IMG/VR virus record: IMGVR_UViG_3300042914_002848
Origin: a virus
Lineage: Duplodnaviria > Heunggongvirae > Uroviricota > Caudoviricetes
Direction: 5' to 3' (one strand)
Length of the DNA stretch: 64,000 nucleotides
This document shows, piece after piece, positions 5,103-21,724 of the stretch. The translations under genes were made by a program, and so were the position numbers. The notes beneath the pieces are model-generated. The model ran no database searches. It worked only from the letters and a program-made list of their open reading frames with translations, and was not told the origin of the DNA. Numbering within the stretch: the first letter of the stretch is position 1; every line of letters starts with the position of its first letter.

Positions 5103-5387
5103 TTATAATTTTTTAAATTTAGGACTACAACCCAAATAGATTGAGTTTTTGAATGGTGTTACTCTATGGGTTTTAATTTTATGTTTCTTAATAACTTCAT
5201 CTACGATTTCAGAAAATTCATATTCACAAATTTCATGTGCCATAAAATCAATTACCTTTTGCCCATTTTCATCTATGGAGGCGTTATTCATTAATTCATC
5301 AAAATCGGCTGATGGGGTGGATGCTTTATATAGTTTCCTATAGCATTCCCTCATTGCTTCTATTTCTTTTGTTGTTGCGTTCATCAC
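5103..5387 (-). CDS. hypothetical protein
   Basis: 94-aa ORF. Its first 10 codons lie inside the 57-bp direct repeat. Confidence 0.5.
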   Translation of the reverse strand: MMNATTKEIEAMRECYRKLYKASTPSADFDELMNNASIDENGQKVIDFMAHEICEYEFSEIVDEVIKKHKIKTHRVTPFKNSIYLGCSPKFKKL

Positions 5388-5414
5388 AATTTTTCTACTT
5401 TAAGTTCACCATCA
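5358..5414. repeat. 57-bp direct repeat, copy 1 (spans the GS 3' end and the 5103..5387 gene's 5' end)
   Basis: Differs from 6435..6491 at 2 of 57 positions. Confidence 0.85.
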
Positions 5415-6409
5415 ATTTGTTTTAAGGCATCCGAAATAACTTTAACAATCTTATACGGGTCTGCATTTGAAGCAGGCCTTCTATCCTCAATATATCCCTT
5501 CCACTTCAATGATGTTTGAATGGGAACTCTTAAAGATGCACCTCTATCAGAAACACCCCAACTAAACTTATGTATGGATTGGGTTTCATGCTTACCTGTT
5601 AATCGTTGTTCATTAGATGAACCATAATTTTCAATATGTAAAGTGTGTCTACTTTCAAAAACATTGAATATTTTAGAAAAGTATTCCATTCCCCCAATTT
5701 CTCTCATTATGTGGTTTGAAAAATTACAATGTAATCCACTACCATTCCAATCACCCATAACAGGTTTTGGGTGAAACTCAATTTTATATCCCCACTTTTC
5801 GGATAACCTTTGTAAGATATATCGTGATATCCACAAGTCATCTGCAGCAGATTTTGATGAGGTATTGAATATCTGATATTCCCACTGTCCCAAAAGTACT
5901 TCTGCGTTGGTGCCTGTTATTGATAATCCAGTATTTAAGCAAATTTCAAGATGTTCATCTACGAATTTTCTACCACTTACATGCCCATCACCCACACCAC
6001 AATAATACATACCCTGTGGTGGTGGAAATCCATTTATTGGAAACCCAATCGGTCTACCATCTTTTAAAATAGTATATTCCTGCTCAAATCCATACCATAC
6101 ATTATCATAATCAGGTAATATGTGTCTAATATTACTTTCGTGTGGTGTCCCATCAGGATTCATAACCTCACACAAAACAAAATAACTTACATATGACCCC
6201 CCATCCATAGAATTTTGGTATAAAGCAACAGGTTTAAGTATTCTGTCAGAATAATGCCCTTCGGCCTGTTTTGTGGATGAACCATCGAATGACCACTCTG
6301 GGCAATCAGATAGGGTTATAGAATCTTTTTTGGATAATATTTTAACTTTACTTCTTAGGTTTGGTTCGGGTGTATATCCATCCAACCAAATGTATTCTAA
6401 TTTTATCAT
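5384..6409 (-). CDS. glnII: glutamine synthetase, type II (eukaryote-like GSII) homolog
   Basis: 341 aa, collinear with GSII. Matching blocks: EYIWLDG, GMYYCGVG, NAEVLLGQWEYQIF, HCNFS, RLTGKHETQSIHKFSWGVSDRGASLRVP, GYIEDRRPASNADPY. Confidence 0.8.
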   Translation of the reverse strand: MIKLEYIWLDGYTPEPNLRSKVKILSKKDSITLSDCPEWSFDGSSTKQAEGHYSDRILKPVALYQNSMDGGSYVSYFVLCEVMNPDGTPHESNIRHILPDYDNVWYGFEQEYTILKDGRPIGFPINGFPPPQGMYYCGVGDGHVSGRKFVDEHLEICLNTGLSITGTNAEVLLGQWEYQIFNTSSKSAADDLWISRYILQRLSEKWGYKIEFHPKPVMGDWNGSGLHCNFSNHIMREIGGMEYFSKIFNVFESRHTLHIENYGSSNEQRLTGKHETQSIHKFSWGVSDRGASLRVPIQTSLKWKGYIEDRRPASNADPYKIVKVISDALKQIDGELKVEKL

Positions 6410-6434
6410 ATTAATCTTTTAATTTATTATATAT

Positions 6435-6491
6435 TTCTATTTCTTTTGTTGTTGCGTTCATCACAATTTTCCAACTTTAAGTTCACCATCA
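6435..6491. repeat. 57-bp direct repeat, copy 2 (spans the phosphatase 3' end and a truncated 16-codon copy of the 5103 gene's start)
   Basis: See copy 1. It encodes the shared C-terminal tail DGELKV(E/G)KL. Confidence 0.85.
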
Positions 6492-7180
6492 TATATTAAA
6501 TATTCTTTTGAAGGTAAAGCATCAATCATATAGTATTTACCCCCCATTGATTTATCTGTTGATTTAATATCAATAGATTCAACTCCGGTGTGACCTACAA
6601 TTTGGATGAACCTACCTTTAATAGAATCTTTTCCTCTTTTTTTATTTGACCATAACAAAGATCGTGGACGAATCCAAATTGGTGATTGAACTACATCATC
6701 ACCATAGGGGTCCCACCCATTAAATTTAAAAATAGATGGGGTGTATGTGAATGTTTCATTTAATTTCTCAACCAAATTATCACAATTCCACATATTTCTA
6801 AACCACCTATCCATAAATACTGAAGATACACCTGCGTGTGTGCATAGGAACTTATCAAACGAATATGCCATTTGAAGATGTTCCATATTTTCTTTCAGCA
6901 CCATTTCTATATCAAATTTAAGAGCAGGTTGAAAACCACTATAAGTTTGACCAACATTCATATAATGAAAGTCGTGATTACCTACTAATAGGATAACCTC
7001 TTTACCGCTTGTTTTTTTATATTCAATTATTTCTTTGAAATTATGAATTTGGTCTATGCCAGGTATATCAAAAGAATCAAAGTAATCTCCAATAAAGATA
7101 ACCCTATCAGCGTTTTCTTTTGCTACAATGTCCTTCCAAATTGGACGGCCATGTATATCTCCAATAAATATTGTTTTCAT
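6461..7180 (-). CDS. PPP-family metallophosphatase (lambda Ser/Thr phosphatase-like)
   Basis: Contains GDIHG, GDYFD and GNHDF metallophosphoesterase motifs. Start set at MKTIFIGDIHG, directly downstream of a promoter element. Confidence 0.75.
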   Translation of the reverse strand: MKTIFIGDIHGRPIWKDIVAKENADRVIFIGDYFDSFDIPGIDQIHNFKEIIEYKKTSGKEVILLVGNHDFHYMNVGQTYSGFQPALKFDIEMVLKENMEHLQMAYSFDKFLCTHAGVSSVFMDRWFRNMWNCDNLVEKLNETFTYTPSIFKFNGWDPYGDDVVQSPIWIRPRSLLWSNKKRGKDSIKGRFIQIVGHTGVESIDIKSTDKSMGGKYYMIDALPSKEYLIYDGELKVGKL

Positions 7181-7183
7181 ACT

Positions 7184-7216
7184 TAAATATACGAATAAGT
7201 TTTTATATTTCCAAAT
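7184..7216 (-). promoter_or_regulatory. conserved phage promoter element (TTTGGAAA, 20 nt, TATATTTA)
   Basis: Identical over 33 bp to 7619..7651. Matches the Bacteroidetes -33 TTTG / -7 TAnnTTTG architecture. Confidence 0.6.
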
Positions 7217-7293
7217 ATTACTTACACAAATACAACATAATCCCGGTGGATAGGTGAAGTAAAATGGGACAAATGGGCGAGTTATACACAATA

Positions 7294-7605
7294 CTAAGAT
7301 TGTGGCTCAAATTCAGATTTCAATTTAAGGTAATTTTCATACCTACGTTTTCTCAATTCTTCTTTAATGTATTCATTATCAGAAATTCGTTTTTGATATT
7401 CTTCGTCAGTTTCTTCTCGTTCTCGAATAACAACTAATTCAGTGTAGGCATCGTAAGAATTGTTTTTACTATAAAAACTTTCTTCTCTACGAATATCAAT
7501 AATATCATTTTCTTGAATGTCTTTCGGTAAATCAGAAAAACGAATTTCTTGAAAATTACCTTTGAAATCTTTAGTGTAGATTTCTTCTTTTACTTTCTGT
7601 TTCAT
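7294..7605 (-). CDS. hypothetical protein
   Basis: 103-aa charged ORF. Confidence 0.5.
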   Translation of the reverse strand: MKQKVKEEIYTKDFKGNFQEIRFSDLPKDIQENDIIDIRREESFYSKNNSYDAYTELVVIREREETDEEYQKRISDNEYIKEELRKRRYENYLKLKSEFEPQS

Positions 7606-7618
7606 ATTATTTATTTTG

Positions 7619-7651
7619 TAAATATACGAATAAGTTTTTATATTTCCAAAT
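7619..7651 (-). promoter_or_regulatory. conserved phage promoter element
   Basis: Exact 33-bp copy of 7184..7216, sitting 14 nt upstream of the ATG at 7605. Confidence 0.6.
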
Positions 7652-12311: not shown

Positions 12312-12350
12312 CTTTCTATATTAAATTTAGGTTAAATTTATCCACATTTT

Positions 12351-12379
12351 TTGTGGAAAAGTGTCCAATTTATTGGACA
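12351..12379 (-). terminator. rho-independent terminator (in duplicated module)
   Basis: Inverted repeat TGTCCAAT-TT-ATTGGACA followed on the minus strand by CTTTTTCCACAAAAAA. It begins 5 nt after the NUDIX gene's stop. Confidence 0.55.
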
Positions 12380-12383
12380 GTTC

Positions 12384-19325: not shown

Positions 19326-19517
19326 CTACACAATAGATAATTTTCTTTTTAAGTTTTTAATATGTTTACACTCCGAACCCCTACCGAATTCATAAGCAGG
19401 GCAGTTACATATAAATCGTTTATGATTAAAAGATGTAACATTGTAGTATTTGAGCCTCTTTGTTTTTTTATCACGAGAACCCATTTCAATGTAAACTTGT
19501 TTCCAATCTAAACTCAT
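19326..19517 (-). CDS. SWIM zinc-finger protein
   Basis: CxC-x(n)-CxH pattern in FICNCPAYEFGRGSECKHI. Confidence 0.45.
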   Translation of the reverse strand: MSLDWKQVYIEMGSRDKKTKRLKYYNVTSFNHKRFICNCPAYEFGRGSECKHIKNLKRKLSIV

Positions 19518-19535
19518 ATCTTTTATTTATTTTAG

Positions 19536-19618
19536 TAGTCAGGACAGGATTCGAACCTGTATTAGGGCTTACGACCTATGATACTCTATTTACTACAACG
19601 CCATGTAGCCACCTGACT
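19536..19618 (-). tRNA. tRNA-like element (83 nt)
   Basis: On the minus strand: 7-bp acceptor stem AGTCAGG/CCTGACT, T arm ACAGG-TTCGAAT-CCTGT, D stem CTAC/GTAG with GG in the loop. No canonical anticodon stem could be drawn by eye. Confidence 0.5.
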
Positions 19619-19624
19619 ATTTGT

Positions 19625-19834
19625 TTATTTTTCTAAAACATACCGCATCATTTCTTGCATCTTGAGAATCAAAACTTTCATTTCATCCTCATTAAGATAC
19701 AACCTACTGTTAGGTGTTTTATCATCTAATTCTTTGGTTTCTATGATGATTCCATCGAACTCTTCCGTGGGGTAAATTCCAACATTCTGTTCTTCTGTTG
19801 AAATAATAGTTTTAATCCAAACTTTGTTTTTCAT
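19625..19834 (-). CDS. hypothetical protein
   Basis: 69-aa ORF between the two tRNA-like elements. Confidence 0.45.
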   Translation of the reverse strand: MKNKVWIKTIISTEEQNVGIYPTEEFDGIIIETKELDDKTPNSRLYLNEDEMKVLILKMQEMMRYVLEK

Positions 19835-19852
19835 AACTTTTTATTTTTTTTG

Positions 19853-19974
19853 TAGTCAGGACAGGATTCGAACCTGCGGAGAACGGCTTGATAGTTTCTG
19901 CGCGAGGGCTACTTAATTCGCCACCCCTCAATCCTTGTTCTCAATTACGCTGCGGATACCACCGCCACCTGACT
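19853..19974 (-). tRNA. tRNA-like element, atypically long (122 nt)
   Basis: Same acceptor stem and T arm as 19536..19618, D arm GCGG-TGGTAT-CCGC, plus about 40 extra internal nucleotides. Confidence 0.35.
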
Positions 19975-21652: not shown

Positions 21653-21692
21653 TTTTGAGATTAAAATTCCATTAAAGTTATCCACATTTGTG

Positions 21693-21718
21693 TGAAAAAG
21701 TGTCCAATTTATTGGACA
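21693..21718 (-). terminator. rho-independent terminator (second copy of the duplicated module)
   Basis: TGTCCAAT-TT-ATTGGACA hairpin followed by CTTTTTCACAC on the minus strand. Confidence 0.5.
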
Positions 21719-21724
21719 GTTGGG

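Follow-up and report, generated by a model that had tools for sequence, protein, structure and literature searches.

A glutamine synthetase gene flanked by direct repeats of a gene junction in an uncultured T4-type phage

T4-type phages carry small genes in PeSL cassettes, which lie in hyperplastic regions between direct repeats, each consisting of an intergenic early promoter and a stem-loop terminator and found at numerous genomic sites (Arbiol et al. 2010, PMC2839356; Comeau et al. 2014, PMC4122927). In close relatives, the empty site holds just one chimeric repeat, and recombination between the repeats excises a circle that is able to reintegrate (PMC2839356). Here we describe a locus in a 64,000-nucleotide stretch of DNA from an uncultured phage of the Caudoviricetes (IMG/VR record IMGVR_UViG_3300042914_002848), hereafter the window, which has a G+C content of 32.5%. 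At this locus, the gene for a type II glutamine synthetase (GS; the type is called GSII below) lies between two direct repeats of 57 bp. We conclude that the repeat is very likely a duplicated junction between the stop of a phosphatase gene and the start of a gene called ORF94, formed as GSII joined the phosphatase-ORF94 backbone through two non-homologous junctions. Mosaic phage genomes arise by illegitimate recombination between co-infecting phages, and extra genes are added as "morons" (the Hendrix/Juhala model). The insertion/substitution vector system of T4, said to go back to Selick et al. in 1988, reportedly yields single-crossover insertion-duplication products. GS (glnA) itself appears among the viral auxiliary metabolic genes reported in metagenomic studies (e.g. 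PMC8115048, PMC11944383).

In topology, the locus is similar to a PeSL cassette or to the product of a Campbell-type integration. A small gene cassette lies between direct repeats, recombination between them would excise a circle able to reintegrate, and filled and empty alleles occur in close relatives (about 24 filled contigs versus 7 empty ones). However, the locus lacks the defining features of PeSL. Its 57-mer is an overlapping gene end and start, occurs only at the phosphatase/ORF94 junction, and has no stem-loop and no promoter-like or terminator-like match; moreover, its duplication produced a chimeric protein tail. As in the T4 vector system, an insert lies between duplicated target homology and can be lost through the duplicates, but the GS case is natural, the homology is just 57 bp and a circular intermediate is hypothetical. 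The locus fits the Hendrix/Juhala and moron models in that an extra gene stands between genes that are adjacent in relatives and that the junctions are non-homologous. It also fits the former in that functional arrangements near gene boundaries survive and that the module would then spread by homologous recombination in its flanks. Classical morons bring their own promoter and terminator, whereas the GS insert has neither; both of its junctions lie within coding sequence, and staggered breakpoints left a 57-bp duplication that marks the event. Unlike a transposable element, the insert comes without transposase or integrase and without terminal inverted repeats. Compared with the viral GS genes reported so far, what is added here is that the footprint of acquisition and a chimeric tail are visible. 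The locus is neither a transposon nor a classical moron. It is best classed as a well-preserved case in which illegitimate recombination between related phages moved an auxiliary metabolic gene.

Layout of the repeats and the gene between them

The direct repeats at 5358-5414 and 6435-6491 are identical at 55 of 57 bases, with a start-to-start offset of 1077 bp; re-measurement confirmed the coordinates and the identity given in an initial annotation of the window. Both mismatches fall within a 4-nt stretch, and the minus strand reads GTTGGA in one copy and GTAGAA in the other, so that the phosphatase tail has V-G where the GS tail has V-E. The copies share an exact run of up to 36 nt; in 30 Markov-shuffled windows, exact direct repeats reached no more than 15-18 nt.

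All genes at the locus lie on the minus strand, in the order phosphatase, repeat copy 2, GS, repeat copy 1 and ORF94. The phosphatase is a Metallophos (calcineurin-like) protein of 239 aa (6461..7180; PF00149, E 5.5e-11) that ends in ...YLIYDGELKVGKL, and its final 9-10 codons sit inside copy 2. Copy 2 (6435..6491) is the upstream copy on the coding strand and consists of the phosphatase tail, the TGA, a GTG/ATG start and the first 10 codons of ORF94. Copy 1 (5358..5414), the downstream copy, provides the GS tail, the GS TGA and the start of the full ORF94 (5103..5387), a gene without assigned function that directly follows the phosphatase in empty-site relatives. On the minus strand, each copy encodes D-G-E-L-K-V-(G/E)-K-L, followed by a TGA stop overlapped by GTGATG and then by (M)MNATTKEIE. 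This reading bears out the earlier description of each copy as the tail of the upstream gene, a stop and the head of ORF94. Also as described earlier, copy 2 opens a remnant ORF of 16 codons and a stop (MNATTKEIE followed by IYNKLKD; 6461..6411, minus strand). In this remnant the ORF94 head runs on into the insert, and its TAA ends 1 nt ahead of the GS ATG (6409). In a second filled haplotype, the remnant is likewise open with an identical stop (MMNTTAKKEEVYNKLKD before the stop), and it is presumably translated.

The insert-specific DNA (5415..6434, minus strand) is 1020 bp long. A 25-nt leader (6434..6410) and GS codons 1 to about 331 fill this length, with no transposase, integrase or endonuclease gene in it, and no terminal inverted repeats were found at its ends. 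The insert had no blastn match in the empty-site loci; it is 98.5% identical to the insert of the second haplotype and 89.8% identical to that of related phages of the type of contig L095. The GS gene (5384..6409, minus strand) encodes 341 aa with a chimeric C-terminus, and both of its ends are overlapped or abutted by adjacent reading frames. Between the phosphatase and GS, there is no terminator-like site and no promoter-like site of the type found elsewhere in the window (TTTGG-N19-GTATATTTA). A scan for sigma-70-type promoters performed overall no better than on shuffles. RNA folding of the 57-mer revealed no stem-loop or significant structure (z 0.25 and -0.57).

Domain analyses revealed Gln-synt_N (PF03951, 37.4 bits; cutoff 33.4) and Gln-synt_C (PF00120, 54.6 bits; cutoff 24) in the GS protein. 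It is similar to the solved type II enzymes 3fky from yeast (E 3.9e-94) and 4bax (344 aa; E 1.2e-92, query residues 2-328), and the similarity to both ends near residue 328. In GenBank phage records, type I enzymes are at most about 26% identical to it. The translation also contains the stretch KPVMGDWNGSGLHCNFS, which we take to fit the ATP-binding pattern of GS, K-P-x...N-G-S-G-x-H-x3-S (PROSITE PS00181). Judged by domains, full-length similarity and length (the 330-370 aa class), the protein is a predicted GSII. Nei-Gojobori dN/dS values against three relatives were 0.22, 0.15 and 0.11, indicating that the gene is maintained under purifying selection.

Residues 1 to about 331 of this protein are GS, and the last 10 residues (DGELKVEKL and a junction residue) come from the phosphatase tail. 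The C-terminus reads ...VISDALKQI-DGELKVEKL, and the earlier observation that GS and the phosphatase share C-terminal residues holds, since DGELKV(E/G)KL is present in both tails. YLIYDGELKVGKL or close variants of it (...YDGEIKVGKV, ...YDGELKVGNMS, ...YDDGEFKLGKI) end phosphatase homologues down to about 50% identity. In contrast, among the 120 best GS cluster representatives from a collection of 5.8 billion proteins, only P0001, the GS cluster of the sister filled haplotype, has the DGELKV tail. This supports the prediction that DGELKV(E/G)KL is not a native GS end. The nearest other GS proteins are 87-90% identical, 334-337 aa long and end in ...ALREVEK, ...ALKEVGGI or ...ALIEVENIKK. Viral GSII tails are hypervariable beyond the conserved VISxAL; after DRRP they are 26 to 113 residues long, and it is therefore plausible that a swapped tail is tolerated. 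In more distant relatives (L053-L059, e.g. L056, 3980-5257), GS is 421-427 aa long with a Cys-rich C-terminal extension (...CGICGIKTRQLKSAHIDTRIGYVEGAGQSCDGSCGTFK), and about 28 kb separate it from the phosphatase of that contig.

Empty sites, filled haplotypes and related phages

IMG/VR was scanned with ORF94, the phosphatase and GS as queries. ORF94 homologues were found in 9 viral loci at 69-97% amino acid identity, and 7 of the 9 abut the phosphatase stop. In 7 viral contigs (3300020204_000192, 3300020183_003550, 3300020204_000022, 3300020196_000267, 3300046003_006630, 3300046001_009672 and 3300017747_003569), the phosphatase stop overlaps the ORF94 start without GS, and the homologue of repeat copy 2 is present as a single copy at this junction. 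This arrangement, with the phosphatase directly before the ORF94 homologue, is what the initial annotation had predicted for relatives that lack GS. Across the 7 contigs, identity to the window ranges from 99% to 92% for the phosphatase and from 95% to 69% for ORF94. Codons 2-11 of ORF94 are unusually variable among close genomes (NATTKEIE, IYATAKEEE, NATTKEQE, YVTPNEEK, SLATKKEEQ), and the codons after this head are conserved (A-x-RECYRKLY).

About 24 contigs from JGI, ENA and Logan assemblies carry the filled allele, 10 of them with the window's exact GS and 14 with the GS of the second haplotype (P0001). The same arrangement is present in 2 IMG/VR contigs, and the junction layout was read directly in 9 fetched loci (L103-L111) from 9 samples. 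We call the two haplotypes W (the window and L109-L111) and T (L103-L108, L131, L011 and L015). They have identical insert boundaries, although the duplication in T is 58 nt, the base after GAA being the ORF94-type g. Copy 1 and copy 2 differ at 2 of 57 positions in W and at 8 of 57 in T. Copy 2 of T reads ...GTAGGAAAATTATGATGAATACAACAGCAAAAAAAGAAGAAg, and copy 1 of T is within 1-2 bases of copy 1 of the window.

Nucleotide identity between W and T is 93.9% in the phosphatase and 86% in copy 2, versus 98.5% in GS, 98% in copy 1, 96.5% in ORF94 and 98.4% in the following gene, ORF82. The window phosphatase is nearer to that of an empty-site contig, L010 (97.5%). Because the phosphatase and copy 2 are diverged and GS is near-identical, the ancestry changes exactly at the boundary between copy 2 and the insert. 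Either the module would have been transferred to diverged backbones or gone on recombining with them, or the copies stem from two parents. To judge from their sequences, the two repeat copies in T derive from different alleles. One marker is informative about direction: all 7 empty sites read AAATTATGATG (TTATGATG), whereas copy 1 of W and T and copy 2 of W read AAATTGTGATG, which we call the G form.

GSII homologues number thousands in the protein collection and are found at 44 loci in IMG/VR. Those of the clade at 87-90% identity belong to related phages that have GS in the same neighbourhood. In contigs L095 and L097, the order is phosphatase (ending in ...DGELKVGTINE)-DUF2452-GS-ORF78'-ORF86-Metallophos_2-GT2-TM-AAA_33 kinase, where ORF86 corresponds to window ORF82 by homology and TM denotes an ORF for a small membrane protein; from the kinase onwards, the genes also occur in the window. 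A 1.5-kb contig, L135, carries DUF2452-GS (ending in ...ALKEVGGI)-ORF94, with 94% nucleotide identity between this ORF94 and the one in empty-site contig L009. The outgroup L116/L117 (phosphatase 74%) has the order phosphatase-ORF136-ORF94-ORF82-TM-AAA_33, which argues that the ORF94-ORF82-TM-kinase order is old. The gap between the phosphatase and ORF94 is thus a hot spot with at least three different fillings. No flanking repeats were found around ORF136 in L117 or around DUF2452-GS in L095, and the junction duplication is seen only in the window-type filling. A second GS, a DUF2452 gene or other slot genes of the L095 type were not found elsewhere in the window.

These comparisons indicate that GS is not foreign to this phage group: relatives whose GS is 87-90% identical have it in this variable slot too, beside a DUF2452 gene and with native tails. 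The gene was probably donated by a related phage in which GS already occupied the slot, in the order phosphatase-DUF2452-GS, and not by an unrelated source. Among metagenome contigs, an exact search with 24 nt of the leader and the GS start returned only one T-haplotype contig and two unrelated chance matches. In GenBank phage records, GSII of the window type matches uncultured huge phages only, and a nucleotide search with the locus gave only weak matches (huge uncultured phages and Pelagibacter phage HTVC008M). In every examined contig of the 87-90% clade (L095 3706-4071, L097, L134, L135 and L136), a DUF2452 gene of 121 aa directly precedes GS; the two genes may form a functional pair that was broken up when GS moved. 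The leader was considered as the 3' end of a DUF2452 gene and rejected, as the similarity (ATTAAAA...TAA...ATG) is weak, out of frame and uninterpretable in AT-rich DNA.

Origin of the duplicated junction and alternatives

The duplication probably arose as co-linear relatives recombined illegitimately at staggered breakpoints, and GS most likely came from a related phage with phosphatase-DUF2452-GS in the same variable slot. The left junction lies after ORF94 codon 10-11, and at the right junction GS codon ~331 is joined to the phosphatase gene ten codons before its end. Re-entry into the backbone lies 57 bp (58 bp in T) upstream of the exit, and for this reason that stretch is now present on both sides of GS. 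Both junctions are non-homologous and inside reading frames. A short microhomology is suggested for the right junction, where the sequence is ...AAAGAAGTTGGTGGT in native GS, ...AAACAAATTGATGGT in the window and ...TATGATGGT in the phosphatase.

Such a duplication could form by two routes. One is a single event, either a replicative template switch in recombination-dependent replication or integration of a circle. The other consists of two successive unequal crossovers between co-infecting relatives, one GS-bearing and one with an empty site. The two-step route needs no special mechanism and would account for the differing copies in T, and the one-step route would account for the near-identical copies in W; the data do not separate them. 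The initial annotation had proposed that GS was inserted at the phosphatase/ORF94 junction with duplication of that junction. The empty sites and the origin of the tail support this; two unequal crossovers in succession may have taken the place of a single insertion. On the whole, its interpretation largely holds.

As an outcome that is visible in the sequence, GS has lost its native tail and ends on the last residues and the stop of the phosphatase, ORF94 retains its overlapping start, and the phosphatase retains its own end. The chain of termination and re-initiation from the phosphatase through the remnant ORF and GS to ORF94 would remain unbroken on one transcript, which would start at the promoter-like element ahead of the phosphatase gene. 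Once formed, the module would have moved onto or stayed on diverged backbones through homologous recombination in the flanks.

Several observations weigh against this account. No direct donor turned up, since even the closest GS that is not part of a filled allele is 90% identical in protein, and the 25-nt leader had no donor match in the metagenome scan. Because there is neither a donor nor a leader match, the junctions cannot be mapped to the base and the microhomology stays a suggestion. No intermediates (DUF2452-GS with a phosphatase tail, or phosphatase-copy 2-GS with a native tail) were seen among the sampled genomes. All 7 empty-site contigs lack ORF82, TM and AAA_33 within about 4 kb and diverge from the window past ORF94; the exact recipient backbone (phosphatase-ORF94-ORF82 without insert) is deduced from the outgroup, and none was observed. 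Finally, only the spacing points to translational coupling.

No new type of element or mechanism is proposed; this is a known way of gene gain in phages, and the value of the locus lies in its clarity. Phage mosaicism is usually inferred after junctions have eroded, whereas here an empty site, two filled haplotypes, relatives with the older context and both junctions can be read. The case concerns a metabolic gene, GSII, reshuffled within a freshwater T4-type phage group. Although the junctions are inside reading frames, the staggered breakpoints keep the stop/start overlaps of all three genes at the cost of a chimeric enzyme tail. The locus also makes it possible to ask whether phages in natural populations can excise and reintegrate a gene by way of about 57 bp of coding homology. 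A speculative extension, which we doubt, is that the duplicated coding junction acts as a portable adaptor. It would provide about 57 bp of homology for looping out a GS mini-circle and reintegrating it into any co-infecting relative with a phosphatase/ORF94 junction, and a stop/start overlap that plugs cargo into the coupling of the operon. If this is true, the adaptor would be the coding-sequence counterpart of PeSL cassettes, and a nitrogen-assimilation gene would be reversibly mobile within a phage population.

A different origin by Campbell-type integration, in which a circle carrying GS and one junction copy enters an empty site by a single homologous crossover and GS is reversibly excisable, is possible but in our view improbable. 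A repeat-insert-repeat locus versus a single copy at the empty site is the exact product that it predicts. The phage's DNA polymerase is a family B enzyme of the T4 type, the adjoining ORF103 cassette is a classic PeSL-like pair with perfect 33-nt promoter-like repeats, and the mini-circle mechanism has been shown experimentally in RB49 and phi1 (PMC2839356). A crossover near the right end of the repeat would also generate the T haplotype, in which copy 2 would be of the recipient and copy 1 of the donor type, and between the haplotypes GS is far more alike than the phosphatase flank. However, such integration accounts for the spread of the module and not for its origin, as a circle bears the 57-mer only if a filled locus existed before. 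The 57-mer is a coding junction without stem-loop and not a promoter/terminator cassette, and no circle junction or excision product was found. Because the G form is tied to copy 1 in both haplotypes, excision from either should mostly leave TTGTGATG. Nevertheless, all 7 empty sites read TTATGATG and none has the G form, and a degenerate pattern of phosphatase flank, G-allele junction and ORF94 flank had no match in IMG/VR. The sampled empty sites therefore look ancestral in sequence, unlike recent losses of GS. Loss of GS through the repeats, which the initial annotation had raised, is plausible, but it has no support in the sampled genomes, either from the 7 empty sites or from the IMG/VR scan for the excision pattern.

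The reverse direction, with the filled form ancestral and the empty sites deletions by way of the 57-bp repeats, seems very unlikely. In its favour, the junction of L010 equals the left part of T copy 2 joined to the right part of T copy 1, and the phosphatase of this empty-site contig is the nearest to that of the window. In addition, a repeat of 57 bp is close to the shortest that Singer et al. reportedly found in 1982 to recombine efficiently in T4. However, the repeats need a prior duplication, and the tail that they contain belongs by origin to the phosphatase, not to GS. Furthermore, empty sites occur in lineages as far as 69-78% ORF94 identity, the outgroup L117 has no GS in the slot, and the absence of the G marker from all empty sites and from IMG/VR counts against this direction as well. 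Even less probable is the insertion of GS by a transposon-like or homing element with a target-site duplication, although a discrete insert between direct repeats with filled and empty alleles would suit it. The 1020-bp insert is too small for a transposase, integrase or endonuclease besides the leader and GS, its ends have no inverted repeats, and the right junction lies in the GS frame and removes the native tail. A length of 57-58 bp also far exceeds that of typical target-site duplications. An assembly artefact or chance similarity has almost no probability, and nothing speaks for it except the general risk of repeats in metagenome assemblies. The layout is identical in fetched JGI, ENA (megahit) and Logan contigs from several samples and in two haplotypes, and the exact run of 36 nt in the repeats compares with 15-18 nt in shuffled windows. 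The reading of the junction in 9 loci from 9 samples ruled out an artefact. Illegitimate recombination between related phages remains the preferred origin of the locus.

Neighbouring cassettes and repeats

For this phage with its T4-type polymerase, the best cultured match is Microcystis phage Mel-JY01 (50%). The phage further encodes GroEL, an aminotransferase and glycosyltransferases, and the region around the GS locus is mosaic among relatives. Directly upstream of the phosphatase lies a second repeat-flanked cassette (7184..7651, minus strand), in which ORF103 (7605..7294) is located between perfect 33-nt repeats. On the coding strand, these promoter-like repeats, at 7651..7619 and 7216..7184, read ATTTGGAAATATAAAAACTTATTCGTATATTTA. 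ORF103 is missing from L010 and L012, where only one 33-mer lies between the stop of ORF168 and the ATG of the phosphatase. By analogy, the ORF103 pair closely matches the filled/empty pattern of PeSL and the mini-circle model of T4-type phages (PMC2839356).

A promoter-like family, TTTGG-N19-GTATATTTA, ends a few bases before start codons and is found on the minus strand at 2964, 7184, 7619, 11804, 17536, 20490 and 23066. The pattern has 10 matches on both strands versus 2.75 expected from shuffles, and the 7 minus-strand sites look like members. The motif is similar to the Bacteroidota -33/-7 promoter type (TTTG ... TAnnTTTG), a likeness that may hint at the host.

Other repeats are also present in the window. 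A family of 81-nt repeats has 4 copies (11793, 12269, 20479 and 21609) that are up to 88% identical, and a 35-nt repeat adjoins it (12348-12382 and 21687-21721, 94% identical); these may be further cassette boundaries. A 46-nt repeat (19514-19559 and 19831-19876, 89% identical) contains GTAGTCAGGACAGGATTCGAACCTG and resembles the 3' half of a tRNA on the minus strand, and ARAGORN predicted no tRNA in the window. Near the start of the window, two repeat pairs (956-1012/1428-1484, 75%; 1107-1140/1570-1603, 97%) have a spacing of about 465-472 bp. This suggests a tandemly duplicated gene, and relatives have paralogous ORFs at that position (L117 12148-12847).

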